From the sequence record PQ631072.1: 64,000 nt of DNA; one strand, 5' to 3'. The notes below the pieces were generated by a model. That model was given only the letters and a program-made list of their open reading frames with translations, made no database searches and had not been told where the DNA came from. Within the stretch, counting starts at the first letter, position 1. Each line of letters begins with the position of its first letter. Made by a program: the position numbers and the translations under genes. Of this stretch, positions 3,425 through 62,956 are shown piece by piece. Source of the DNA: Escherichia phage EC.P2.

Positions 3425-3452
3425 TTGACACCTGAAATCAGTAAGCTATAAT
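3425..3452 (+). promoter_or_regulatory. Consensus sigma70 promoter (TTGACA-N16-TATAAT)
   Basis: Perfect -35 and -10 hexamers. Confidence 0.7.
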
Positions 3453-4136: not shown

Positions 4137-4164
4137 TTGACAGCACGAATAAAAAGCATATAAT
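4137..4164 (+). promoter_or_regulatory. Consensus sigma70 promoter (TTGACA-N16-TATAAT) followed by hairpin 4178-4194
   Basis: Hexamers read directly. Confidence 0.7.
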
Positions 4165-24349: not shown

Positions 24350-24377
24350 CCCCTAGAAGCGATTCTAGGGGTTTTTG
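24350..24377 (+). terminator. Rho-independent terminator (cccctagaa-gcga-ttctagggg + TTTTT)
   Basis: 9-bp stem followed by T-run; closes + strand block. Confidence 0.7.
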
Positions 24378-24442
24378 TTTGCATTAGGTAGGGAAACGTA
24401 TTACTAAAATAAAAAGTGCGTTAGAATGCGTTACAGGAGGTT

Positions 24443-24700
24443 TTAGGAATGCATAAAATCTTCTTCAGGGCAGGTTGAGAGATAAGAGATGCACGTTGGG
24501 ACAACAACAACATTATCTTTAAGGTTTTCAACCAAGCCTTTTGTAATTCCAGCCACTGCCCCGTTAATATCTGCTTGACGGATACCAAAGCCTTGTTGTG
24601 CGGATAGATAACAAAATCCCTCGCCTTTCTGTTGATTGTTATTGAAGTAATAAACGTAGTGCATCATAAAATGGTCTTTAACGATTTGTTCTGTGGTCAT
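24443..24700 (-). CDS. Hypothetical protein (85 aa)
   Basis: ORF with RBS aggag. Confidence 0.5.
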   Translation of the reverse strand: MTTEQIVKDHFMMHYVYYFNNNQQKGEGFCYLSAQQGFGIRQADINGAVAGITKGLVENLKDNVVVVPTCISYLSTCPEEDFMHS

Positions 24701-24716
24701 AATATTCTCCTATAAG

Positions 24717-24736
24717 AAAAGGGGCTTTCGCCCCCT
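24717..24736 (-). terminator. Hairpin ggggc-tttcg-gcccc with A-run (minus-strand terminator)
   Basis: Same ggggctttcgcccc stem recurs at 36009 and 49094. Confidence 0.5.
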
Positions 24737-24744
24737 TGGTTAAG

Positions 24745-25557
24745 TTATTTAGTCAAATGATCTTCTATCATTTTTATGAAAGCAGGATTGCTAAAAGCAT
24801 CTGCGGCTTTTTCTCGATAAACAAAGACTCCTCTATCTTCGTAAAGAAGAGTTTCTTCGTAATTAATTCCTGGGTTAACAACAATCATTTTTGTACCCAT
24901 ATTAAGTGCAGGGAATAATTCCCAATTAAAATTGATAACTTGGTTTGAACATCCTACTACAACAACCAAATCTTGCATGGTCAAAGTATCAAACAAGTGA
25001 GCCATATCTGCATACAAAGGTGCAGCCTCACCAAAAAATACAACATTAGGCTTCACCCAGTTATAATCATCTATGTTTATGCTGTTGTAACCAATATCTA
25101 CCAGTGTTTTGTAATCTCCAGGATGCATACGGTAAACTACTTCAGGAAGATATCCGTGCACGTGAATAACCGAATCTCTGTCTACACCTGCTCGCTCTAG
25201 TAGATCATCAACGTTTGTTGTCAAGTTTATTACTTGGTTAGGATATTCCTTAAACCACTTTGCTATTTGAATATGTGCAGCATTAGGTTGTACATCTTTA
25301 AGCTCAACACGTCTTTTGTTATAAAATTCGTGTGTTTTGGCATACAAATCCATACCATTTTCGTCTACACCACCAACCACTGGAAGATCTGGAGATGTTC
25401 TCACACGATAACCTGCTTGGAAAGCTCCAATATCGCAGACCTCTTCTAAATCATATTCTTCCCATAAAGCACGACCACTATCTGTGTCTGTTCGGAATGT
25501 TCGAATCCCACTGTCTGCACTTAAACCTGCACCACTGACAAAAATTACTCTTCGCAT
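24745..25557 (-). CDS. Sir2-family (sirtuin-like) NAD+-dependent enzyme, no zinc-ribbon cysteines (270 aa)
   Basis: GAGLSADSGIRTFR, TTNVDDL, HG and VVFFGE motifs; no CxxC pairs. Confidence 0.7.
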   Translation of the reverse strand: MRRVIFVSGAGLSADSGIRTFRTDTDSGRALWEEYDLEEVCDIGAFQAGYRVRTSPDLPVVGGVDENGMDLYAKTHEFYNKRRVELKDVQPNAAHIQIAKWFKEYPNQVINLTTNVDDLLERAGVDRDSVIHVHGYLPEVVYRMHPGDYKTLVDIGYNSINIDDYNWVKPNVVFFGEAAPLYADMAHLFDTLTMQDLVVVVGCSNQVINFNWELFPALNMGTKMIVVNPGINYEETLLYEDRGVFVYREKAADAFSNPAFIKMIEDHLTK

Positions 25558-26099
25558 TCAATATCCTCTTCGTAATCATCATACCAAGAAGATGCGTCGT
25601 AACGCTCTTCCTCTTCGAAATCCCAATTAATTTCTACTCCAAAATCTAAAAACAATTTAACAATGTTTTCTGTAGAGTAGTATTTATCATAAGCATTAGC
25701 TAGTTCCCAATACTTATCACTCAATTTTTTATAATTAGGATCATTATAATCATGAGCTACTTTATCACCATAATCATACATCTCTTGTTCAGCTTTAAGC
25801 ATAGCTTCTGGTGTAAGAAGATTAGGGAACGGACGATTTCTTTCTTTTAACTTAGAAGCAATCCAGTTTGCAACATTCGCCACTTCACCATCTCGATTAT
25901 CACCTAAACAGCTTGCATAATCTCCATCTTGGTAAGTGCCTAAATCCCCACTGACTTCATGTACAATAGATGAATACGATCCACACGTTTCACAATCTGA
26001 AAAAGTGTCTACTGTTGTAATATCAATAGATAAAACTGGTAAAGCCATAGCTTCTTTCACACAAGCCTCCTCATATAATAACATATCATCAAAACCCAT
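25545..26099 (-). CDS. Highly acidic hypothetical protein (184 aa), co-transcribed with Sir2-like gene
   Basis: ORF with GGAGG RBS; D/E/Y-rich C-terminus; 13-nt overlap with Sir2 start. Confidence 0.55.
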   Translation of the reverse strand: MGFDDMLLYEEACVKEAMALPVLSIDITTVDTFSDCETCGSYSSIVHEVSGDLGTYQDGDYASCLGDNRDGEVANVANWIASKLKERNRPFPNLLTPEAMLKAEQEMYDYGDKVAHDYNDPNYKKLSDKYWELANAYDKYYSTENIVKLFLDFGVEINWDFEEEERYDASSWYDDYEEDIECEE

Positions 26100-26152
26100 A
26101 TATCCTCCAGACAAATAAAGCCCCTGGTTGGGGCTTTGGTTAAGTTTTACGG

Positions 26153-26182
26153 ATTATACCAGACTTTTAAGGTAGTTGTCAA
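26153..26182 (-). promoter_or_regulatory. Consensus sigma70 promoter on minus strand (TTGACA-N18-TATAAT) for the acidic protein/Sir2-like pair
   Basis: Reverse complement of 26153-26182 gives ttgaca ... tataat; followed by GC hairpin 26113-26137. Confidence 0.55.
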
Positions 26183-26765
26183 GTGCTTCTTGATCACCTT
26201 GACAAACATAGCAACGGAAATCTTGAGCAGAAGGTTCTTTGTCCTCTTCCCAATCCCAATAGACAGTACCTTTATAGCGTGAACCTGGGAACTCGAAGTA
26301 TGCTACGTGGGTAATATGGTGTGGGCCACCCCAAAACTCTGTAAAAGTAAATTGAGGATATGCTGCTTTAACTGTATTTTCAAACCAAGTTTTACGATCT
26401 AATGCTTCGTTTATAAAATAAGCATGGCGTTCCATTTCATCCCAATCTTTCCAAACGCATTTTTCATCCAGGGAAAAAACAAAATTCTCACTGTTAAAAT
26501 CGTCTGTATCTGATTCCAAAATATCATAATCATATGCGCTAGGTATCCACCATCCAGCTTCTAATAGTGCTTTCGCAGGTACAAAACCTTTTTCAGCGTA
26601 TTGATCAAATTCTTTTACTCTACGTACAGTGCAGTATTCATCTTCACCACCAATGTCCAGCATACAAGCGCCTTTGCGTCTTGCTGCAAGACCATGTGTA
26701 TCAAAAACTACAACACTACCTTCACCATCTTCACGATCTACTTGATATGCAACTTTTTGAGTCAT
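26154..26765 (-). CDS. Hypothetical protein (203 aa)
   Basis: ORF. Confidence 0.55.
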   Translation of the reverse strand: MTQKVAYQVDREDGEGSVVVFDTHGLAARRKGACMLDIGGEDEYCTVRRVKEFDQYAEKGFVPAKALLEAGWWIPSAYDYDILESDTDDFNSENFVFSLDEKCVWKDWDEMERHAYFINEALDRKTWFENTVKAAYPQFTFTEFWGGPHHITHVAYFEFPGSRYKGTVYWDWEEDKEPSAQDFRCYVCQGDQEALDNYLKSLV

Positions 26766-26888
26766 ATTACCCCCAATGTATATGGGAAATTAACCAAAAG
26801 ATAAATTCCCAAAAACACCAACCAAGAAAAGTTAATGGAATTATAAAAGCTATCAGAGCAGTCTTCCAGCCTTTCCACAATGTTTCCA

Positions 26889-27878
26889 TCATTCCTCCAT
26901 ACACTTAAGAATATGTGCAATGACAGGTATAGTCCAACCATTACCTAACATCTTATATGCTTGTGTGTTACTACTCACTTTAAAGTAATCATCTGGAACA
27001 CCTTGTAAGCGGCAACACTCTTTAACCGTTAACTTTCTATAATGCACGCCTTCGCTCAATTTTTCAAAGGCATCCAGATATCTTCCAGGTGGAATGTAAG
27101 CTAATAGTACATCTTTCGGCACAGTCGTGAGGCAACGAGTTTTTTCACTGTCTTGAACTTCCAAGCAATGTACCAAACGATCAGTTTTAGATGTACTACG
27201 TTTGCCATTTTCATTAATTCTACGCCCATATATTGCTGCTGGATAAAAAGCCAGTTGTCTGCGACTCTTTTCAAAATACTGTTCTATATTACCACCTTTG
27301 GCATAATTTGCATCTATGCAATAAGCCTTATCTCTGTCTACGATACTATCATCTTCAATGATATCTTGCAACACTTCATTGGTAATATCCCAAGGTTTTA
27401 TTTCCCAATTGCACCAGTATAAACGTTGTCTATTCTGTGCAGTGAAATCTGCGGAGTTAATGAATACGGGATCAACACCTAAGTAACTTGTGATCACGTT
27501 TTCCCACTCCACCTTCATCTTAACGTTTTCAAGCATGAACTTAACATTAGGGTTAAACTTTTTAATATGTTCAAGAATTTCAACATATTCAAAGAACAGT
27601 TTAGATCGCGGATCTTGAAAGTTCAAACCCTTACCAGAAGAAGAGAAGCCTTGGCACGGGCTACCACCTAACAAAAGATCAATTTCTCCCCACGGGATAT
27701 CCCATTCTCTCCATTTTGTAACATCCCCTAATTGAATAATGTCTGGAAAATTGGCTTGGCTTTCAGCTATGGCAAATTTGTCCAATTCTGAGGCATAATA
27801 TTTATCTACTTCAATACCTGCACTTTTTAGTGCAAGCATTCCTCCTGACATACCATCAAAAAGACTTAAAACTTTCAT
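26889..27878 (-). CDS. DNA (cytosine-5)-methyltransferase
   Basis: Motif I FDGMSGG, motif IV GGSPCQGFS, motif VI ENV, C-terminal GNGWT. Confidence 0.85.
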   Translation of the reverse strand: MKVLSLFDGMSGGMLALKSAGIEVDKYYASELDKFAIAESQANFPDIIQLGDVTKWREWDIPWGEIDLLLGGSPCQGFSSSGKGLNFQDPRSKLFFEYVEILEHIKKFNPNVKFMLENVKMKVEWENVITSYLGVDPVFINSADFTAQNRQRLYWCNWEIKPWDITNEVLQDIIEDDSIVDRDKAYCIDANYAKGGNIEQYFEKSRRQLAFYPAAIYGRRINENGKRSTSKTDRLVHCLEVQDSEKTRCLTTVPKDVLLAYIPPGRYLDAFEKLSEGVHYRKLTVKECCRLQGVPDDYFKVSSNTQAYKMLGNGWTIPVIAHILKCMEE

Positions 27879-36687: not shown

Positions 36688-36954
36688 TTACTCCGCAATC
36701 TGAGCCATGAATTCACGTAGTTCAGAAAAACCTCCTACGTGGGTTAGATGTTCACCATCTTCCACAAAAATTTGAGGGAAGGTACGTGGCAGAACACCTG
36801 TTTTCTCTAAAACCAGATTCTGAATCTGATCTAAAGAATAGTCTTCATCTAAGGTAAGGTATTTAAAATCCTGTTCACGCTGTTCTAGCAGAATTTTAGC
36901 GTTAGTGCAGAAAGGACAATTTGGTTTACCGTAGATAATAAAATTCATTTTCAC
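36688..36954 (-). CDS. Glutaredoxin-like protein (CPFC active site)
   Basis: IYGKPNCPFCTNAK motif; 88 aa. Confidence 0.75.
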   Translation of the reverse strand: MKMNFIIYGKPNCPFCTNAKILLEQREQDFKYLTLDEDYSLDQIQNLVLEKTGVLPRTFPQIFVEDGEHLTHVGGFSELREFMAQIAE

Positions 36955-37781
36955 TCCTTGTTTAAAAGTATAGTTAAAGTTCTTACAATACCGCTATCAA
37001 CACTTCGCGGATTTAAAGTAGGATCTGTTTTTAAATAAGATGTTGCTGGTCTGACTGCTTTAGAATTATAGGTTGAAGCAGATACAGGATTAACTGTAAC
37101 AGATAAATCTATAACAAGAAATATCTTTCGTGCAAAATCATACCAAGAAATATAATCTGCACCTGCATAGTGTACAATTTTACTATTTACACCATCTTTT
37201 ACAAGTTTAAAAATTGTTTCTGCCAGATCAGGTGCATAAGTAGGACATGATAAATGATCACATACTACATTAAATTCTTTTTGACCACCGTTGTAGCGTT
37301 CCAACATAGTTTTCAAAAAGTTATGTCCAAACTCACTATAAACAGAAGCTGTTCTGATAATAAGTGCTGTAGGACAAACTGTTTGTACTAAAGTTTCACC
37401 TAATTGTTTACTGTAACCATAGGTGTTCAAGGGGTTTGTTTTACTATCTTCTGTGCCAGCGACATGCCCATCAAAAACATAGTCTGTTGAAATATGTACA
37501 AACTGTATCAGTAAATCATTACATGCTTTGGCAATGTTTGTTGCACCGTATGCATTAACATTTATACAGGTGTTAACATCTTCTTCAGCTTTATCTACTG
37601 CTGTGTAAGCCGCACAATTCACAACAACATCAGGCACGTGCTGTACAAGACTATTCATAACATCTTTAAAGTTGGTAATGTCTATATCACTTGCTTCAAT
37701 CAAAATAACATCTTCTGGCGCAACTTTTGCCAAAGACTGTCCTAATTGACCTTTTGAACCAAAGATTAAAAATTTTGTCAA
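36951..37781 (-). CDS. rmlD: dTDP-4-dehydrorhamnose reductase
   Basis: N-terminal FGSKGQLG Rossmann motif; position in rmlBACD cluster. Confidence 0.8.
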   Translation of the reverse strand: MTKFLIFGSKGQLGQSLAKVAPEDVILIEASDIDITNFKDVMNSLVQHVPDVVVNCAAYTAVDKAEEDVNTCINVNAYGATNIAKACNDLLIQFVHISTDYVFDGHVAGTEDSKTNPLNTYGYSKQLGETLVQTVCPTALIIRTASVYSEFGHNFLKTMLERYNGGQKEFNVVCDHLSCPTYAPDLAETIFKLVKDGVNSKIVHYAGADYISWYDFARKIFLVIDLSVTVNPVSASTYNSKAVRPATSYLKTDPTLNPRSVDSGIVRTLTILLNKE

Positions 37782-38332
37782 AATATGATCTCCTTTAGTG
37801 TTTTGGCTTGCTGATCTTTTTGTGACAAGATAGGTTTAAAATTAATATCATTAAAGATTAAATCAAAACCCCAATCTATATTGATATCTGGATCATTCCA
37901 CGCAAGACTACACTCTGAAGTCGGATCGTAATATTCTGTGCATTTATATTCAAAATCAGCAATATCGCTAATCACAACAAAACCATGAGCGAAACCAGGA
38001 GGAATCCAAAATTGTGTTTTATTCTTTTCAGATAAGAGAACACCTACCCATTCTCCAAATGTTGGACTACCAACCCTAATATCTACAGCAACATCATAAA
38101 CTTCACCACGAACACAACGTACTAACTTCCCTTGTGGGTTTTTCTTTTGAAAATGAAGCCCACGTAGAACTCCTCGAATAGAACGTGAATGGTTATCTTG
38201 GACAAAGTTTTGTTTACCTATGTATTGATCATATAAAGCCTGATTAAAACTTTCTAAGAAAAAACCACGTTCATCTCCGTAAACGTCAGGTTGAATGATC
38301 AACAAATCTTCGATTTTTGTTGCTTGAATCAT
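37778..38332 (-). CDS. rmlC: dTDP-4-dehydrorhamnose 3,5-epimerase
   Basis: RGVLRGLHFQ cupin motif; 184 aa. Confidence 0.85.
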   Translation of the reverse strand: MIQATKIEDLLIIQPDVYGDERGFFLESFNQALYDQYIGKQNFVQDNHSRSIRGVLRGLHFQKKNPQGKLVRCVRGEVYDVAVDIRVGSPTFGEWVGVLLSEKNKTQFWIPPGFAHGFVVISDIADFEYKCTEYYDPTSECSLAWNDPDINIDWGFDLIFNDINFKPILSQKDQQAKTLKEIIF

Positions 38333-38344
38333 TTAACTCCCCCT

Positions 38345-39214
38345 TTATTTTAATTTAAGTAAATACTTACCGTAGTCTGTTTTACTTAAAACCTCTCCAG
38401 AACTTCTTACAGAGTCTAAAGTAATCCATTCATTTTTAAAAGCAATCTCTTCTAGGCATGCAACCTTCATCCCTTGTTGCTTTTCTATTGCATGAACAAA
38501 TTGAGATGCTTCCATAAGACTTTCATGTGTTCCTGTATCCAGCCAAGTGAAACCCCTTCCTAGTTTACAGACACGTAAAGTCTTTTCTTTCCAGTACATC
38601 TCATTTATATCTGTAATCTCTAACTCCCCTCTAGCAGAAGGTTTAACGCTCTTAGCTTTCTGTATAACAGAATTATCGTAAAAGTACAAGCCTGTGATTG
38701 CATAGTTGCTTTTTGGTGTTTTTGGTTTTTCTTCAATACTCACCACTGTACCTTCAGAATCAAATTCAACAACACCAAATCTTTCAGGATCATTTACGTG
38801 ATACCCAAAAATATTAGCTCCACCATTCTTTTCAATATGTTCTTTAGCAGAATCTAAAATGCTACCAAAACTCTGACCAAAGAATAAATTATCACCTAGC
38901 ACAAGTGCTACAGAATCTTCACCAATAAAGTTCTCACCAATAATAAAGGCTTCTGCTAAACCTTTTGGGCTGTTCTGTACTGCATACTGTAGGGAAATAC
39001 CAAAAGAAGAACCATCACCTAGAAGATTTACAAAATTAACTTGATCTTCTGGTGTTGTAATTATTAGTATTTCCCTAATTCCAGAAAGCATTAGGACAGA
39101 GAGTGGATAATAAATCATAGGCTTATCGTAAATTGGTAATAGTTGTTTACTAACCCCTTTAGTAACTGGGTAAAGTCTTGTTCCACTACCACCTGCTAAG
39201 ATAATACCTTTCAT
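38345..39214 (-). CDS. rmlA: Glucose-1-phosphate thymidylyltransferase
   Basis: [19 protein letters not shown]-terminus; 289 aa. Confidence 0.9.
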
Positions 39215-39222
39215 ACTCCTCC

Positions 39223-40212
39223 TTAAACTTTATTTTCCCACCACTCTTTGTTATCTACATACCAATCAATGGTTGAATAAAGTTTTTCTTCAAATGTGCC
39301 TTTAGCTTTCCACCCTAATTCCTTTTCAATCTTATAAGGATTCACTTCGTATCTTAAATCATGCCCAGGTCTATCTGTAACCATCTCAATGAGGCTACAA
39401 GCATCTGTTTCAGATGGATACACCGCATCCATATAATCACAAATCATATAGATTACATCAATATTAGTTCTAGGGTTTCTGCTTCCAATATTATATGTTT
39501 CTCCAGGTTTGCCTTTAGTTACTACTAGGTGTAATGCTTCTGCGTGATCGTCAACGTATAACCAATCTCTTACTTGAAGACCATTACCATAAACAGGGAT
39601 TGGTTTATGCATCAAGATATTTGTTATCGTTTTAGGTATTAGTTTTTCTGGATGATGATATGCTCCAAAATTATTTGAACAATTTGTTATAACTGTCGGA
39701 ACACCATAAGTACGATGCCACGCTCTTACCAAATGATCGCTTGCTGCCTTAGATGCAGCATATGGACTACTTGGCTTATAAGGATTCTGTTCTGTAAACG
39801 GATAATCCCCTTCTTCCAGATCACCATACACTTCATCTGTTGAAATATGATGGAACATTTTAAGATTTGATTTATCTCCCATTAAACGAACAGCTTCTAG
39901 AAGATTAAATGTCCCAACAATATTTGAATTTATAAAAACACTCGGTGATGCTATTGAATTATCTACGTGACTTTCTGCTGCAAGATGCATTATATAATCT
40001 GGATTAACATCTGCCACAATCTTAGCAGTTAACTGCGCATTTGTCAAGTCAACACGACAAAACTTTACATTAGGTGTTTCTGATAAATTTCTAGGGTCTG
40101 AAGCGTAACCCCATTTATCTATAACGTAAATATCATTCTTAGTATTTTTAGCCAGGAAACGAACTACTGCACTTCCAATAAAGCCTAAACCACCTGTTAC
40201 TAAGTATTTCAT
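39223..40212 (-). CDS. rmlB: dTDP-glucose 4,6-dehydratase
   Basis: [18 protein letters not shown]-terminus; 329 aa SDR. Confidence 0.85.
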
Positions 40213-45767: not shown

Positions 45768-46739
45768 TCACCATTTTGTATGGTTCGTCAAAAGTTGACG
45801 ATGTTGAATCCAACCACAGAAGTTTCCACTCCACAAACGATGTTTACGATCCATATGTGTAATACCTTCTTCCCAAGAGGAAGGGAACGGAGGAATATTA
45901 ATACCACCTTTCTGTTGTTTTAATCCTGACAAATCCATTTCTTTCATTGGCGTTGCCTGGTGTTCAAACGGAGATGCATGTACCTTTTGTCCAGACAGCA
46001 AACGAGAATAGATATCCAATGCTTTATCTTTAGTATCATTCAACTTACGATAACTTACCTGAGCGCAACAAGAAGCTGAAATAGCTTTTGCTTCATCTTC
46101 TGTCAACACTTTCTCGTTGGAGAAGGTTTCACCCAAGAAATAACGGATCATACCAGTTTCTGGATCTCGATCACGATTAACGTAAGGTGTATGCCATTCC
46201 CCTGGGAAAAGAAGATATGGTTCAGAAGATTCATACAGTTTTTTAATTTCTTTAGCAAGAGCCTCAATAGTAGGATCTGCATCAGCATCTACGCGCAACC
46301 ACAAGAAGTTTTCTAGCTCTGTAGTGGTTACTACAGTCTTCATACGCTGAAATGGTTCTAGTAGGCGGTTTGCAACCTGTTTATGATAACCAGCAAGGGC
46401 AAACTCTTCTGCAAAACGTGCAGCACTTAGTGCAGCCAAGTCCCACCATTCTTTTGCAGTATAACCTGCATCAATCAGGGCATCGTGATCTGTGCCTTTA
46501 TCTTGCATACCTGGTTGGTTAGCACCAAAACGATAAGGACGTGCTGGAGATTGCCGTACCATTTCAATCAGAGTTTTAACAGGGATAGCTCGACTTGATG
46601 CGGCATTACGAGAAAACAAACGATGCGTCATCAATTCAGAGTGAATGATTCGAGGATATTCAAGTTCAAAGGTAACAATATCCTTACCTTCGGATGTTTG
46701 AGAGTGTGCAATAATTTTTGCTGAAATAGAATTTGTCAT
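45768..46739 (-). CDS. thyX: Flavin-dependent thymidylate synthase (ThyX-like), putative
   Basis: HRLFSRNAASSR resembles the ThyX RHR-x7-8-S-x-R signature (first Arg replaced by Thr). Confidence 0.55.
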   Translation of the reverse strand: MTNSISAKIIAHSQTSEGKDIVTFELEYPRIIHSELMTHRLFSRNAASSRAIPVKTLIEMVRQSPARPYRFGANQPGMQDKGTDHDALIDAGYTAKEWWDLAALSAARFAEEFALAGYHKQVANRLLEPFQRMKTVVTTTELENFLWLRVDADADPTIEALAKEIKKLYESSEPYLLFPGEWHTPYVNRDRDPETGMIRYFLGETFSNEKVLTEDEAKAISASCCAQVSYRKLNDTKDKALDIYSRLLSGQKVHASPFEHQATPMKEMDLSGLKQQKGGINIPPFPSSWEEGITHMDRKHRLWSGNFCGWIQHRQLLTNHTKW

Positions 46740-52697: not shown

Positions 52698-53420
52698 TTA
52701 AGCAATGATTGCTGCGATATTAGGTTTAACAAAGGTAGATGGTTTCATAATTTTACCTTTGTCATCAAAGAATACGTATACCTTTTGAACTTCGTTATAT
52801 ACAGCATGTACTCCAGTATAAGAACCTTCTGCACGATCTTTGCTTCGCATCTCGATAGCATCACACTCTTTTTCAAGAGCTTCAACAATATCCTTAGTTT
52901 CCCAAATAGCCAGGAGTTGCTTCTTGGTAGGATACTTGGACTCATTGCTATTCAACACTTCACGCATAACCTTCTTCTCGTTATAAACAGAACGCACCAA
53001 AGTATCTCGTGCCATACGTGTAAGTGTAAGAGACATTAGGGCAAATTGCAAGTCATTTTCTACCATTTTATCAAATTCAATGATAACATCGTAGATGTTT
53101 TCTGCCAGAACATCTCCTGTCGGCATTTCCAGAGCTTTATCAACACCTTCTTTACCAAAGAACATAAACGCCAGGTAGGATGCTACCACAAAAATATCTG
53201 CTGCTGCATCAAGTAATTCAACGTGATCATTTTCCTGTGCTGCTGCTTGGAACTCTTTTAGTTCTTCTCGTACAAAAGAAAGTTGAGCTTCAAACATCTC
53301 TTGAGTAAATTCTGGGGTTACGCCACCACGTGCCTTAGCATTCCAAGCAACAATTTGATCGGCAGCCTTGATAAAGAAGCTATTGTCCACTTTTACTTGT
53401 TTGAAAAAATTCTCGATCAT
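52698..53420 (-). CDS. MazG-like nucleotide pyrophosphohydrolase, putative
   Basis: EELKEF ... ELLDAAADIFVV resembles the MazG ExxE ... D metal-binding helices; weak. Confidence 0.3.
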   Translation of the reverse strand: MIENFFKQVKVDNSFFIKAADQIVAWNAKARGGVTPEFTQEMFEAQLSFVREELKEFQAAAQENDHVELLDAAADIFVVASYLAFMFFGKEGVDKALEMPTGDVLAENIYDVIIEFDKMVENDLQFALMSLTLTRMARDTLVRSVYNEKKVMREVLNSNESKYPTKKQLLAIWETKDIVEALEKECDAIEMRSKDRAEGSYTGVHAVYNEVQKVYVFFDDKGKIMKPSTFVKPNIAAIIA

Positions 53421-55475: not shown

Positions 55476-55880
55476 TTATTGTAGCTTAAGTGAACTGCGA
55501 AGACGTTTCTCTTGCTGATCACGAATATGTTGTGGAACCTCATGAATTGAGTCGTTACCGTGCCTATTTTCAACAACTAAGGAGATAACTTGATAACCAA
55601 ACTCTTCAGCAAGAGTAAAATAAGGTTTAAGTTCTTTCTCTGTGGTTGAAGTGTTAGAGACAATAATCTTTTTAATATTAGATGCCATAGCATCACGAAC
55701 AATACTCTGACACCATGCGTGTGCTTTACCTACATTCTCTGGCTTCCAATCGTAAACACCACTATCTGTGTAATGATATTGATCTGCCTCACAGATAGGC
55801 CAATAACCTTCAGAAATAATTTCTGCTACTGTAGATTTACCTGCACCTGAAACACCACGTAAGATGATAAGTTGTTTCAT
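55476..55880 (-). CDS. P-loop kinase, polynucleotide-kinase-like
   Basis: Walker A LRGVSGAGKST; adjacent to RNA-ligase-like gene. Confidence 0.5.
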   Translation of the reverse strand: MKQLIILRGVSGAGKSTVAEIISEGYWPICEADQYHYTDSGVYDWKPENVGKAHAWCQSIVRDAMASNIKKIIVSNTSTTEKELKPYFTLAEEFGYQVISLVVENRHGNDSIHEVPQHIRDQQEKRLRSSLKLQ

Positions 55881-56813
55881 TTAGCCTCCAAAGAAGTTTT
55901 CTATTTCTTTACGTCGCTCTTGTGGATCTAAAGCAGCCCATTGAGTTTTAGTAAAGTTGTTTCGAAGCCATTCTAGCAAAGTATAATATTCTTCGTCAAC
56001 AATTTGTTTAGCATTTTTTGGGTTGTCCCAAATCATATCCCACTTCTTATTGCCACCACGCATAAGGAATTTCTTAGCAAGATAGTATGGTGACTTAATC
56101 TTTAACAGCAAGTTAAACGGATAGTTTGTTTCACGAACAACAAACCCTTCGTGCTTACAATGTTTAGACATTTCAACAACATCTGAAAATTTAATCATCG
56201 GATAAACTTCAGGACGTTTAAATTTTGTAATAGATGCAATCCCATCAAGCACACCTTCAGGTAGCATGAAACTTGTCCCATCAGGATTTTGAATCCTTGC
56301 TCCAATTAAGTATGCGCCTGGTTCTTCTTCAACAATATGTGGATCAGAAGGATCACAGATTTCAAAAAGGAAAGTTGCTTTTGCACTTTCTGTCCACTTA
56401 ATGAAATATTCTATGTCATCACACTCGGAAACAATATGATTCTTGGCAAGAATTGCAAAATCTGACTCTAGGCTCCCTGTTGTTGATACAATAAGTTGCC
56501 CTTTGTACACACCTACAGATGCCATAAAACCGTTTACTTTACGGACAGCATCTACAAGCTGGTCTGCTGGAAGATCTGTACCATTCTCAAAACGATTAAA
56601 GATTTTAGTAAAAGGCCAAATAACAACATTGTCTTCTGAGTCAACAACCAACCCACGACAATCTAGAAGGCGTTTGTCTACGTCCCACAAGTTGTCCCAG
56701 AATACATTGTTTTTGTATTTAAGTACAGCAAGACCAGCATACTCTCCAGATTTAACTTCTTTTTTATGCACTAAACCTTTTGCAATCAGGTCATCACAAT
56801 TGAACTTAGCCAC
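55881..56813 (-). CDS. RNA ligase, T4 Rnl1-like (putative)
   Basis: LLDCRGLVV ... KIFNRFENG and KVNGFM resemble T4 RnlA LECRGIMF ... FFNLNEN and KEDG as recalled. Confidence 0.5.
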   Translation of the reverse strand: MAKFNCDDLIAKGLVHKKEVKSGEYAGLAVLKYKNNVFWDNLWDVDKRLLDCRGLVVDSEDNVVIWPFTKIFNRFENGTDLPADQLVDAVRKVNGFMASVGVYKGQLIVSTTGSLESDFAILAKNHIVSECDDIEYFIKWTESAKATFLFEICDPSDPHIVEEEPGAYLIGARIQNPDGTSFMLPEGVLDGIASITKFKRPEVYPMIKFSDVVEMSKHCKHEGFVVRETNYPFNLLLKIKSPYYLAKKFLMRGGNKKWDMIWDNPKNAKQIVDEEYYTLLEWLRNNFTKTQWAALDPQERRKEIENFFGG

Positions 56814-56814
56814 C

Positions 56815-57366
56815 TTAATCTCCTTTGATTATCTTATGATGGTCTACAACAACAATATCACGCTTATCCATAATAGAGATGATTTCGTCAAAATGCAAGA
56901 TTTTTCCGTGTGCGTCCCAACCAACATCCAACATTTTCCCATACAAATGATCAGGGAATGATCCGTGAGAGTGCCCGTGTAGCATGATTGATCCATGCCC
57001 TTGTTTATTCCAGGAAGCCATAGGGTAATGGCTTAAGACGAAGAACAGTTTCTGATATTTCACTTCATCATAATACACCACCTCGCCATATTCTGCAAGC
57101 ACTTCTCGGTGTTTGCTGTAATCATGGTTCCCAACACAGTAAGTGATATCACCTTGGAGACGGGAAGCAATCTTACGGGTATCTTCTTCAGTCCCGAAAC
57201 AGAAGTCCCCAAGATGGTACATCTTTACTCCTGGTGTTGTGGCACATTTATTCCATGCTTCGATCAGTGCTTCTGTCATATGCTCCATATCTTCCCACGG
57301 GCGATATTCAGGAGCAAACTCTCGGATACGTTTGTGCATAAAATGCAAATCACTTGTAATAAACAT
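56815..57366 (-). CDS. Calcineurin-like metallophosphoesterase
   Basis: DLHF, GDF, GNHD, GHSH metal-binding motifs. Confidence 0.7.
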   Translation of the reverse strand: MFITSDLHFMHKRIREFAPEYRPWEDMEHMTEALIEAWNKCATTPGVKMYHLGDFCFGTEEDTRKIASRLQGDITYCVGNHDYSKHREVLAEYGEVVYYDEVKYQKLFFVLSHYPMASWNKQGHGSIMLHGHSHGSFPDHLYGKMLDVGWDAHGKILHFDEIISIMDKRDIVVVDHHKIIKGD

Positions 57367-57880: not shown

Positions 57881-58222
57881 TTAATAGTTAACACGTTTAA
57901 TTTCAACACCATAGGATGAAATAAAATTTTCCTTAGCTAACATATATTTACCAGCAGCAGAAGGGTTTGATGTATGGACATAGATAGTTTTAAGAGCATC
58001 CCATTCACCCGCATACAACATACATTCTACGTCTAAGAATGCATGATATCCTTCCTGATCTTCTCCAAGATCATTATCGAAGTGTATCTCTGAGATATTA
58101 TTGAAATTATCTTCATCTGAAACAAAAGATAACCAATCCTCAAAAGATTTTAACCAAATGGCATCCTCATAACCATAATCTTTAGGATCTCTTAAATCGT
58201 CTAACCAAAGAATTTTAGCCAC
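57881..58222 (-). CDS. Hypothetical protein (113 aa, GTG start with GGGGG RBS)
   Basis: Track ORF trimmed; no ATG available. Confidence 0.4.
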   Translation of the reverse strand: MAKILWLDDLRDPKDYGYEDAIWLKSFEDWLSFVSDEDNFNNISEIHFDNDLGEDQEGYHAFLDVECMLYAGEWDALKTIYVHTSNPSAAGKYMLAKENFISSYGVEIKRVNY

Positions 58223-60257: not shown

Positions 60258-61151
60258 ATGAAAGTTAGTATTCTGCATGGTGTTGACTGTTATGTTACTG
60301 ATGTAGACGTTAAAGTGTTTACATTCTCTGGTGGAGAACAACATGTTCAATTAGATACGAATCTATCAGGTTTCAATCATGCTACAGACAGAATCTTACT
60401 CACTTTAGAAGTAAGATCTGCTAAAGACTTGATGACTTTGGTTATGACTAAGAATGCATTGGACAATATGCTATATCATAAACCATATTGTGTTGATTTA
60501 CTCATGTTGTATGTGCCGTATGCACGACAAGACAGAGTGTGTGAGCCTGGGGAAGCATTCGGAGTTAAAGCATTTGCTTCTATAATTAATTCATTAAATT
60601 TCTCACGTGTTATCGTTGCTGATCCGCATAGTGATGTTACTCCAGCAGTGTTTGACAGACTCTGTGTAATACCTCAAGAAGAGATTGCTTACGAAACTTT
60701 AAAGTGGAAGTTACGTATGGAGAATTTTGCTCTTGTTAGCCCTGATGGTGGTGCTCTTAAGAAAATATTTAAATTATCTAAGAAAATGTCTTTAGATGTG
60801 TTCTGTGCAGAGAAGGTTAGAGATACCGCAACAGGTGCTATTGTTCGTACAGACATTTCTGTACAGGATTTCAATAAGCGTAACCTGATGATCGTAGATG
60901 ATATCTGTGATGGTGGTAGAACTTTTATCGAATTGGCTAAAGTGCTACGTGCTCGTAACGCAGGTAAGATTGAGCTATATGTTACGCACGGTATCTTTTC
61001 TAAAGGTCTTAAAGAGTTAAGTGAGCACTTTGACTGCATTCATTCTCTTAATGTGTGGGAAGATAACATCCAAGAAGATTCTGGTGTTCTTGTTAAGAAT
61101 CAGTCAGATTTGCAACAACAAATTGTATCTCCATACGTGTGGAATTTTTAA
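60258..61151 (+). CDS. prs: Ribose-phosphate pyrophosphokinase (Prs) family protein; candidate ADPR-PP synthetase of a NARP1-like module
   Basis: YARQDR, VSPDGGA and IVDDICDGGRT Prs-type motifs. Confidence 0.8.
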   Translation: MKVSILHGVDCYVTDVDVKVFTFSGGEQHVQLDTNLSGFNHATDRILLTLEVRSAKDLMTLVMTKNALDNMLYHKPYCVDLLMLYVPYARQDRVCEPGEAFGVKAFASIINSLNFSRVIVADPHSDVTPAVFDRLCVIPQEEIAYETLKWKLRMENFALVSPDGGALKKIFKLSKKMSLDVFCAEKVRDTATGAIVRTDISVQDFNKRNLMIVDDICDGGRTFIELAKVLRARNAGKIELYVTHGIFSKGLKELSEHFDCIHSLNVWEDNIQEDSGVLVKNQSDLQQQIVSPYVWNF

Positions 61152-61222: not shown

Positions 61223-62956
61223 ATGAATATTTTTGCACCTTTTGCTACTGATTGGTACAAACCTGGTCACAAGCAGATGTACAACCAAAATACAAAACTT
61301 ATTTTCTCTAATTTAACTCCTCGTAATGATAAAAACTTTGCACACTATGCAGATCGTGAAGCACGTGGTGTGATTGTTTTAGGTATTCGTCGAGCAGTCA
61401 CTGATGCTCTTGTAACTATGTGGGATAGCTTCTTTAAAATGTCTCGTAGTGCAGCAGTAAATAAGTTTTATCGTATGTCTAAAAATGCATTAGGTGCTTC
61501 TGCGCCTTCTGCTGAATGTTGGGGAGAATTGCACGACTTAGGTTATCTTCCGCTGGAAGTTCGATCTCTGCCAGAGGGTGTTTTGTGTCCTATTGGTGTT
61601 CCTGTATTTACTGTGCATAATACTTTAGAAAAATTCTTTTGGTTAACTAACTATGTGGAAACACTGTTGTCAGATGAAACTTGGAAGACAATGACTAATG
61701 CCACAGCAGCTTTTCAGTATAAGCGTATCGCTATGGCATATGCGATGGCAACGTGTGATAATATTGATCACGTTAACTTCCAGTGTCATGATTTTAGCCT
61801 ACGTGGTTTAAGTAATATCGAAGATGGTTATAAGAGTGGTATCGCTCACTTGGCATCGTTCACAGGAACAGATAATATTCTGGCTATTGAAACTGTGCAT
61901 GATTATTATGGTATTGATTATGATCAGTTTGTTGCAGGTTCGATTCCGGCAACAGAACATTCAGTAGCAACGACTAACATTGGAGCTATTGTTGAAGATC
62001 TGAAGAAACATTTCCCACATCTTAAAGATGATGTAGATGGGCTTCGTTATGTAGCAGAAAAAGAGTTTCTTCGTCGTTATATCGAAGAAATTGTTCCAGA
62101 AGGTTTTTGTTCATATGTAGCAGACTCTTATGACTATTGGGCTGTATTGACTCGCATTCTGGTAGAATTGAAAGATTCCATTATGTCACGAAATGGTCGT
62201 CTTGTTATTCGTCCAGATTCAGGAGATCCGGTTAAAGTTGTTGCAGGATACAATGTTGAATCTTTTGATAACTATGAAGACCTTTTAAATAATGGTATTG
62301 CGACAGCCACTGAAGTAGTTCATTTGGCTGATGTTAATAAGTATTACAATGTTCTTCAGGATTGCAGTGTTGCTGATTGCATTGATGAAACTTATGAGAT
62401 TCCTTATTGTGAAGCAGTAGGTTCTATTCAAATTCTTTGGGAAGTGTTTGGTGGTACTATCAACCGAAAAGGCTACAAGGTTCTTGATCAGCATATCGGT
62501 ATGATTTATGGTGATTCTATTACTGTTGAACGAGAACACGAGATCTTACGCCGACTGAAGAAGAAAGGTTTTGCAGCTTCCAATATTGTATTTGGTGTTG
62601 GTAGTTATACTTATCAGTTCAATACACGAGATACTTTTGGTTTTGCTGTTAAAGCAACAGGTAGTATCATCGGTGAACACGAAATTTTGGTAAGTAAGGA
62701 GCCTAAAACTGATCCTGGTAAACGCTCTGCAAAAGGTTTTATTAAGGTTGTTAAGGATACCAATGGTAATCTTTCTCTTGTAGATAATCTTTCTTTTAAA
62801 GATATCCAGGATGAAGACAATGAGTTACAAGTTATCTTCAAGAATGGTAAGGTTATTACACCACAAGTAGAAGGTCGTGATGAAACATTCACTGATATCC
62901 GCAACCGTGTTGATGTAGAGGTTCTTCGTACTATGGGAACCATCCAGGTTGACTAA
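61223..62956 (+). CDS. nadV: Nicotinamide phosphoribosyltransferase (Nampt/NadV) family protein with C-terminal extension
   Basis: N-terminal FATDWYKPGHKQMY characteristic of Nampt; 577 aa. Confidence 0.8.
   Translation: MNIFAPFATDWYKPGHKQMYNQNTKLIFSNLTPRNDKNFAHYADREARGVIVLGIRRAVTDALVTMWDSFFKMSRSAAVNKFYRMSKNALGASAPSAECWGELHDLGYLPLEVRSLPEGVLCPIGVPVFTVHNTLEKFFWLTNYVETLLSDETWKTMTNATAAFQYKRIAMAYAMATCDNIDHVNFQCHDFSLRGLSNIEDGYKSGIAHLASFTGTDNILAIETVHDYYGIDYDQFVAGSIPATEHSVATTNIGAIVEDLKKHFPHLKDDVDGLRYVAEKEFLRRYIEEIVPEGFCSYVADSYDYWAVLTRILVELKDSIMSRNGRLVIRPDSGDPVKVVAGYNVESFDNYEDLLNNGIATATEVVHLADVNKYYNVLQDCSVADCIDETYEIPYCEAVGSIQILWEVFGGTINRKGYKVLDQHIGMIYGDSITVEREHEILRRLKKKGFAASNIVFGVGSYTYQFNTRDTFGFAVKATGSIIGEHEILVSKEPKTDPGKRSAKGFIKVVKDTNGNLSLVDNLSFKDIQDEDNELQVIFKNGKVITPQVEGRDETFTDIRNRVDVEVLRTMGTIQVD

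Follow-up and report, generated by a model that had tools for sequence, protein, structure and literature searches.

Why does a virulent phage encode a sirtuin that has lost the zinc-binding cysteines of its family, and does this enzyme act together with the highly acidic protein encoded just upstream of it? These questions are raised by a gene pair in a stretch of 64,000 nucleotides (nt) from Escherichia phage EC.P2 (sequence record PQ631072.1), here called the window. An initial annotation, made from the sequence alone, had found a Sir2-like open reading frame (ORF) with NAD+-binding signatures and no paired zinc-ribbon cysteines, regarded the loss as a trait of the NAD+-hydrolysing Sir2 enzymes (NADases) of defence systems, and considered the acidic protein as a possible regulator or DNA mimic. 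The pair is laid out as follows.

24745-25557, minus strand: Sir2-family gene, 270 amino acids, orthologue of phi92 gp038, PHROG 2162 (Pfam, PHROG, PDB, AlphaFold2 (AF2) with Foldseek).
25545-26099, minus strand: orphan acidic protein of 184 amino acids, phi92 gp039, PHROG 9509 (conservation, ribosome-binding site, AF2 model).
25545-25557, minus strand: overlap of 13 nt, gp039 stop codon with Sir2 start codon.

The first question was to which branch of the Sir2 family the larger protein belongs. Its product contains GAGLSADSGIRTFR, TTNVDDL and HVHG, so that the signatures recognized in the initial annotation are indeed present, and it matches the Pfam model SIR2 (PF02146) with 80.9 bits against a cut-off of 24 (E=1.5e-22) and PHROG 2162 with E=1.9e-105. 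Nothing beyond PF02146 was returned by the Pfam scan at E<=0.1, and the defence-type model SIR2_2 was absent too. In the PDB sequence search, E. coli CobB (1s5p) was the best match (E=1.1e-18), followed by Sir2Af2, Sir2Tm, Sir2Af1 and SIRT5, and the NCBIfam models for CobB and other deacylases match at 1e-30 to 1e-11. The NAD+-binding and catalytic residues line up with those of CobB. In an alignment of 34 homologues with 56-91% identity, the residues G9, A10, G11, S13, S16, G17, F21, R22, Y79, R82, R83, N115, D117, H134, G135, F174, F175 and E177 are invariant; the FGE loop is kept, with G176 differing in five of the homologues. The motif FY79NKR82R is also invariant, and its CobB counterpart in the PDB sequence alignment, as we read it, is FYNARR. 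We take Y79 and R82 to be the equivalents of Y92 and R95 in CobB, by the same reading of the alignment, and presumably of Y102 and R105 in SIRT5. This Tyr-x-x-Arg pair of SIRT5 and CobB recognizes acidic acyl groups, namely succinyl and malonyl.

The absence of paired zinc-ribbon cysteines was confirmed, and its meaning changed. The only cysteines of the protein are C41 and C203, both outside residues 135-170, which correspond to the zinc-cysteine segment of E. coli CobB in a HMMER alignment, have a similar length and contain no cysteine at all. The small-domain cysteine column is absent in all 34 aligned family members, whose only conserved cysteine columns are those of C41 and C203. Thus, the Cys4 zinc ribbon of sirtuins is missing, though AF2 still gives the three-stranded sheet of the small domain. 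Judged from this alignment, the zinc ligands were lost long ago and by the clade as a whole, and their absence is no mark of a defence-type NADase; the ORF belongs to a branch of CobB/SIRT5-like sirtuins that is confined to phages and lacks zinc ligands.

The structural comparison agrees with this placement. The AF2 model, built with the 34 homologues, has a pLDDT (predicted local distance difference test score) of 87.5, and the best 50 Foldseek matches in the PDB are all deacylase-type sirtuins, with CobB in the lead (TM 0.85, target-normalised) and no defence Sir2 among them. PADLOC gave no significant match; its top model was PDC-S65 with E=0.003 and 14.9 bits over 37 residues. The resemblance to CobB and SIRT5 (1S5P, 6RXJ, 3RIY, 4UTN) includes the Rossmann and small-domain fold (TM 0.72 query-normalised, 0.85 CobB-normalised), GAGxS...FR, T(Q/T)N(I/V)D, the catalytic His in HG, the FGE loop and the class III Tyr-x-x-Arg pair. 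On the other hand, the phage protein is only about 25-27% identical to them, has all zinc-binding cysteines replaced, and carries a 25-residue variable insertion at 47-72 and a distinct cofactor-loop, FRTDTDSGxxLW. Defence Sir2 NADases such as ThsA, DSR1/DSR2, Sir2-HerA and SPARSA share with it the NAD+-using Sir2 Rossmann core, and they too are not known to have the Cys4 zinc ribbon. Unlike them, it is encoded by a virulent phage, keeps the deacylase-type FGE loop and Y-x-x-R, and has no fused or operon-encoded sensor or partner (SLOG, HerA, pAgo, TIR): it is a single-domain protein encoded among genes for orphan proteins and a Dcm methylase. The idea that zinc loss marks a defence NADase is therefore not supported: Pfam and PADLOC give no significant defence-type match, and the PDB sequence search and Foldseek point to deacylases. 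The grouping with CobB-type deacylases, which the initial annotation itself had named as counting against its view, is what these searches returned.

From these comparisons the protein is most likely a NAD+-dependent deacylase or an ADP-ribosyl-transfer enzyme, and it looks fully competent and of CobB/SIRT5 lineage. The reading that we favour, with moderate confidence, is that it is a catalytically intact class III (CobB/SIRT5) sirtuin, a probable lysine deacylase and not a NAD+-depleting effector. The phage clade would then have swapped out the four zinc-ribbon cysteines and retained the small-domain fold. By CobB-like chemistry, the enzyme would use NAD+ to attack acyl groups that a macromolecular substrate carries, yielding nicotinamide and an acyl- or phospho-ADP-ribose product, and Tyr79-x-x-Arg82 would select a substrate with a negatively charged group, e.g. 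succinyl or malonyl. The likeliest activity would be protein lysine deacylation, which may reset the acylation state of host or phage proteins during infection. The freed nicotinamide may be recycled via the phage-encoded Nampt and phosphoribosyl pyrophosphate (PRPP) synthetase; the genes for PRPP synthetase (60258-61151) and the NAPRTase/Nampt-family enzyme (61223-62956) follow each other on the plus strand of the window.

Several points weigh against this reading. The catalytic Asn and His occur also in Sir2 NADases and ADP-ribosyltransferases, so that the motifs are no proof of deacylation. The scores against the NCBIfam equivalog models fall far below the CobB cut-offs (NF001753, 106 bits vs 243; NF040867, 86 vs 320), which suggests that the substrate may well differ from that of CobB. 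In the rV5-like phage WalterGehring, the Sir2 gene lies in an operon of RNA ligase, cREC, Sir2 and MazG-like genes, with kinase and phosphoesterase genes divergent, and this arrangement points to RNA repair. Moreover, a hairpin at 26117-26137, between the promoter of the pair and gp039 (see below), could stop much of the promoter's own output. Finally, searches of the literature for experiments on phage sirtuins, covering any member of the clade, found none, and a search on zinc-less sirtuins was unproductive.

The Sir2 family is widespread in phages. A tblastn search found it in 983 phage records, with identities to the ORF of 52-60% in T5-like and Epseptimavirus phages, about 48% in Vequintavirinae, 39% in KVP40-like phages and 30-39% in jumbo phages, and with Stephanstirmvirinae also among the carriers; an rV5-like orthologue is 48.7% identical and is also assigned to PHROG 2162. 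The ORF itself is 100% identical to a protein of pEC-M2929-1AR.1, and the clade appears under other names as phi92 gp038, PVP-SE1 gp109, KVP40.0043 and T5-like 'Sir2'. The Sir2 protein of Phapecoctavirus Schickermooser (contig L009, 3971-4786) has 96% identity to it, while gp039 has 37% and the flanking genes 24-68%, which suggests that the Sir2 ORF alone was exchanged recently; other Phapecoctavirus Sir2 proteins have 66-70%. In the T5-like phage DT57C (NC_027356.1), the Sir2 query aligns over no more than about 13% of its length (46526-46636) despite an annotated 'sir2' gene. This copy is possibly truncated or highly diverged, which would imply that the gene is dispensable in some T5-like phages.

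This distribution also bears on the proposal that a phage with both a possible NAD+ consumer and a NAD+ module is unusual. KVP40 and T5-like phages carry members of the Sir2 family, and we take KVP40 to have a NAD+ salvage pathway as well. The NAD+ salvage pathway NARP3 has been described in the T5-like phage Bas30 (PMC13464706). With T5-like phages among the 983 records, Sir2 together with NAD+ salvage in one phage is not unusual.

Among other roles for the sirtuin, RNA repair survives best, although we hold it to be unlikely. The enzyme would transfer a 2'-phosphate to NAD+-derived ADP-ribose in the manner of Tpt1/KptA and, with the ligase, kinase, phosphoesterase and cREC protein of the phage, would mend tRNAs cut by anticodon nucleases of the host. 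Sirtuin chemistry, with a nucleophile acting at C1'' and a subsequent attack by the 2''-OH, has a formal parallel in that of Tpt1 and counts for this role, and the invariant Y79 and R82 could bind phosphate. This prediction has been published for exactly this clade: from gene neighbourhoods, Iyer, Burroughs and Aravind (2022) proposed a KptA/Tpt1-like RNA-repair role for phage sirtuins that they describe as a distinct clade, with rV5, Mydo, SP15 and Serratia BF as named examples (PMC9503650). The Sir2 ORF is a member of that clade, the order Rnl-cREC-Sir2-MazG-like in WalterGehring fits the proposal, and the full gene set is present in the genome of the window:

52698-53420, minus strand: MazG-like (PRA-PH).
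55476-55880, minus strand: P-loop kinase.
55881-56813, minus strand: T4-type RNA ligase 1 (Rnl1).
56815-57366, minus strand: calcineurin-like phosphoesterase (Metallophos).
57881-58213, minus strand: cREC domain protein (PF20274).

On the other hand, these genes lie about 27-33 kb from Sir2, which belongs to a different hairpin-bracketed unit. Unlike the RNA ligase/cREC/MazG neighbourhood of the published clade, the ORF here is detached from them; it follows the orphan acidic gene, and its direct neighbours are gp037, gp039 and gp041. Salmonella-phage records number 289 for Sir2 and 15 for this Rnl1 family, whereas Pseudomonas phages have 175 Rnl1 records and Pseudomonas is missing from the top ten genus names of the Sir2 records; thus, at the search sensitivity used, the two are often uncoupled. 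In addition, all 34 Sir2 homologues are acidic (isoelectric point 4.65-5.78, net charge -6 to -19), which would be atypical of an RNA-binding enzyme, and the deacylase-type FGE peptide-binding loop is kept.

The second question concerns the acidic protein. gp039 is a real gene: it is conserved down to 25% identity with indels in frame, and its ATG at 26099, with the strong ribosome-binding sequence GGAGGA six nt upstream, agrees with homologues that open with MGFDD, MTFGD or MSFDD. The ORF ends at 25545. The initial description of 184 residues rich in Asp, Glu and Tyr, overlapping Sir2 by 13 nt, was accurate: the protein has 44 Asp and Glu against 14 Lys and Arg, 15 Tyr, an isoelectric point of 4.05 and a net charge of -30, and all full-length members of its family have net charges of -20 to -34. 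The homologue alignment added an overlooked feature, since C36, C39, G40, G59, A62 and C64 are invariant (CxxC...C) and position 60 keeps an acidic residue in our reading of the alignment blocks. The three cysteines and the acidic position suggest a Cys3(+Asp/Glu) metal site, and gp039 is probably, on this pattern, a small metal-binding acidic protein. A further cysteine near the C-terminus was considered as a fourth ligand and was ruled out. The terminal EEDIECEE is largely the Sir2 Shine-Dalgarno sequence GAGGA and the Sir2 ATG read in the gp039 frame, and the 'conserved' cysteine is the TG of this out-of-frame ATG plus the following base; moreover, in phage EmilieFrey a GAA->TAA change to a nonsense codon removes the gp039 tail and leaves the Sir2 Shine-Dalgarno sequence and ATG intact.

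The AF2 model of gp039 (pLDDT 85.3) has a long beta-hairpin with the CxxC at its tip, helices and a further strand, and residues 171-184 form a disordered acidic tail. A comparison of this model with the PDB found no fold similarity, including to the DNA mimics Ocr and ArdA, and the protein is not a macrodomain. The family is very small, since it accounts for 12 clusters in a set of 1.84 billion representative proteins, and PHROG 9509 is of unknown function. The profile and structure searches suggested by the initial annotation thus placed the Sir2 protein with the CobB/SIRT5 sirtuins and gave for gp039 no known fold or function. In relatives the acidic ORF is labelled hypothetical, and in BASEL records it is a 'putative aminoacyl-tRNA synthetase'. 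The latter label is unsupported by our searches, which gave only a sub-threshold PheRS_B1 match (E=0.034); at a guess, this match may be the origin of the label. A paralogous relation of gp039 to gp041 or to bas61_0198, the other 'aminoacyl-tRNA synthetase', was not significant in BLASTP. gp039 and the likewise acidic gp041 share the motif (I/V)xWD(F/W)EE(E/D), encoded by a 19-nt repeat with 89% identity (25609-25627 and 26242-26260, both in minus-strand genes), and are otherwise unrelated.

Are the two genes partners? The Sir2 Shine-Dalgarno sequence GAGGA (about 25565-25569) lies within the last codons of gp039, and we infer that the genes are transcribed together and that translation of Sir2 is coupled to that of gp039. 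The two genes overlap or directly adjoin each other in the window, phi92, Schickermooser, phAPEC8, ukendt and the metagenomic contigs L015 and L016. In Klebsiella phage FKP3 (contig L010, 3046-3696), a gene for an HNH homing endonuclease lies precisely between them. The adjacency itself weighs little as evidence, because the whole gene order Dcm-gp041-gp039-Sir2-gp037 is syntenic throughout Stephanstirmvirinae. Outside this context, gp039 homologues in Serratia phage BF, jumbo phage MT939486 and two further contigs are not near Sir2. Upstream of Sir2 in T5-like, KVP40 and rV5-like phages we found no analogous small Cys-rich acidic gene; the genes there are unrelated, and in an rV5-like phage the upstream gene is cREC. 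Homologues of gp039 occur in 136 phage records against 983 for Sir2, so that most carriers of Sir2 are without gp039 and Sir2 has no need of it. The obligate co-occurrence expected of a type II toxin-antitoxin-like pair is thus not seen. A functional tie is possible, but a partnership in which gp039 serves as regulator, antitoxin or subunit finds no support here and would be at best lineage-specific. Two-gene sirtuin modules exist, e.g. the SirTM-macrodomain systems (PMC9503650); unlike in these, gp039 is no macrodomain and has no recognizable fold, and the phage Sir2 mostly occurs without it.

As side observations on the dispersed homologues, the gp039 homologue lies two genes upstream of a NADAR-domain gene in both MT939486 (contig L014, 5001-6951) and Serratia phage BF (contig L005), where that gene is annotated as GTP cyclohydrolase. 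An RNA ligase gene is about 5 kb away from the jumbo-phage homologue.

An explanation that is compatible with the deacylase reading of Sir2 is that gp039 works independently, as an early or middle protein whose task might be nucleic-acid mimicry or counter-defence in a region rich in methyltransferase genes, and merely shares the transcript. The position of its homologues apart from Sir2, in jumbo phages as in further contigs, the restriction of the adjacency to a subfamily with an entirely syntenic order, the fast divergence of gp039 (37% where Sir2 has 96%) and the strong negative charge of the whole family speak for this, as do the genes for a Dcm-like methylase (26889-27878) and an N6-adenine methyltransferase nearby. 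Translational coupling in every examined Stephanstirmvirinae lineage except FKP3 speaks against it, and a mimic in particular is disfavoured by the lack of fold likeness in the PDB to Ocr, ArdA or anything else. We regard independence as doubtful, about as much so as the RNA-repair role of Sir2.

A long shot is that the Stephanstirmvirinae Sir2 and gp039 form a two-subunit enzyme, in which gp039 would serve as a metal or specificity module or as a nucleic-acid-mimicking gate of a non-canonical NAD+-dependent reaction. If this were true, the reaction might be RNA 2'-phosphate removal or reversal of a host defence modification, and the loose proximity to NADAR and RNA ligase genes in jumbo phages would reflect a shared ADP-ribose-centred role.

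Least probable of all is that Sir2 is a toxic NADase or ADP-ribosyltransferase gated by gp039 as inhibitor, antitoxin or DNA or substrate mimic: the layout does resemble type II toxin-antitoxin-like pairs, with a small acidic gene first, the enzyme second, an overlap and its own promoter, the zinc ribbon is lost, and the phage NAD+ salvage genes could buffer NAD+ consumption, but no PADLOC defence Sir2 model is significant, sequence and fold place Sir2 with deacylases, an HNH gene splits the pair in FKP3, Sir2 has been swapped between genera (96% vs 37%) without its neighbour, and the strong acidity of both proteins would disfavour a tight complex.

The transcription signals around the pair are conserved, and they are more complex than the promoter and single terminator described initially.

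26153-26182, minus strand: perfect extended sigma-70-type promoter, TTGACA-N18-TGgTATAAT (motif scan, conserved in five lineages).
26117-26137, minus strand: GC-rich hairpin of 8 bp, weak U tract; downstream of the promoter and ahead of the gp039 ribosome-binding site.
24709-24737, minus strand: terminator-like hairpin and U tract, immediately 3' of the Sir2 stop codon.
24443-24700, minus strand: gp037 orthologue, 85 amino acids, unknown function; the final gene of the strand before the terminator at 24350-24371.
24350-24371, both strands: bidirectional terminator downstream of gp037.

The consensus promoter reported earlier is confirmed at 12/12 positions and has in addition the TG of an extended -10 element; three perfect sites occur in the window against 0.08 expected from shuffles. 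It sits inside the final codons and stop codon of the upstream gp041, and its -35 box, TGn, -10 box (TATAAT or TATAGT) and spacing are kept in five divergent lineages, including Schickermooser, phAPEC8, ukendt and Klebsiella phage FKP3. In FKP3 the gp041 codon that overlaps it has changed from Leu to Phe and TTGACA is nevertheless preserved, which we take as selection on the promoter itself. The two remaining perfect TTGACA-N16-18-TATAAT sites (3425-3452 and 4137-4164, plus strand) lie in a region rich in small genes and are probably strong early promoters.

The hairpin at 26137-26117, AAAGCCCC-AACCA-GGGGCUUU followed by AUUUGU, is terminator-like and had been overlooked, as had the continuation of the strand into gp037. 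Its position is conserved in the five lineages while its stem and loop sequences differ, and the position of the ribosome-binding site is conserved too. As it lies between the promoter and gp039, a transcript from this promoter would start about 9 nt before the stem-loop. The element is probably both a terminator or attenuator for the Dcm-gp041 transcript and a 5' stem-loop of the promoter's own transcript. The hairpin after Sir2, which the initial annotation had already seen, was recovered at 24737-24719 and is followed by TTTTCTTAT (free energy -15 kcal/mol, z -2.4), and the annotation of Schickermooser has ARNold terminators at the equivalent sites. A decamer, ACTTAACCAA, has two exact copies in the 64-kb window (26136-26145 and 24736-24745, minus strand), each directly 5' of one of the hairpins that bracket gp039-Sir2. 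We considered it as a signature of a mobile cassette and left it as an observation: the copies are exact in this lineage only and absent at the Schickermooser equivalents. They could stem from an intergenic cassette that was duplicated locally, or be due to chance.

The locus as such is ordinary. In nucleotide comparison, the region 24400-26800 has 97-99% identity to more than 50 genomes of Justusliebigvirus (phi92-like, Stephanstirmvirinae), the counterparts of its ORFs being gp037-gp041 in phi92 and bas61_0185-0188 in EmilieFrey. Both genes already had annotations in phi92 and over 100 relatives, with the Sir2 ORF as a Sir2-like NAD-dependent deacetylase. Four 'Campylobacter phage' records, A150, A145, C3 and A110a (MG065639, MG065645, MG065656, MG065689), show 98% identity over the 2.4-kb query, and these Campylobacter jejuni phage records are probably mislabelled or contaminant genomes. 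Elsewhere in the window, at about 36950-40210 on the minus strand, the annotation of EmilieFrey indicates four genes of a deoxythymidine diphosphate (dTDP)-rhamnose pathway (RmlA/B/C/D-like), adjoining glutaredoxin and endolysin genes.

Judged by sequence, the Sir2 ORF is thus an annotated member of a known, computationally described clade, and this locus adds no special leverage on it. The new details are modest: the clade-wide zinc-less state, the persistence of a Tyr/Arg pair of the SIRT5 type, and the orphan gp039 with its Cys motif and a tail encoded by a Shine-Dalgarno sequence. The analysis also removes a misleading cue, as zinc loss here is no signal of a defence NADase. Nearly a thousand sequenced genomes of virulent phages, including T5-, rV5-, phi92- and KVP40-like and jumbo phages, encode a CobB-like sirtuin, and the computational prediction of RNA repair is the only proposal for its role in the literature that was searched. 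The retained SIRT5-type Tyr/Arg pair argues for succinyl, malonyl or phosphate-bearing substrates as candidates for assays of these phage enzymes.

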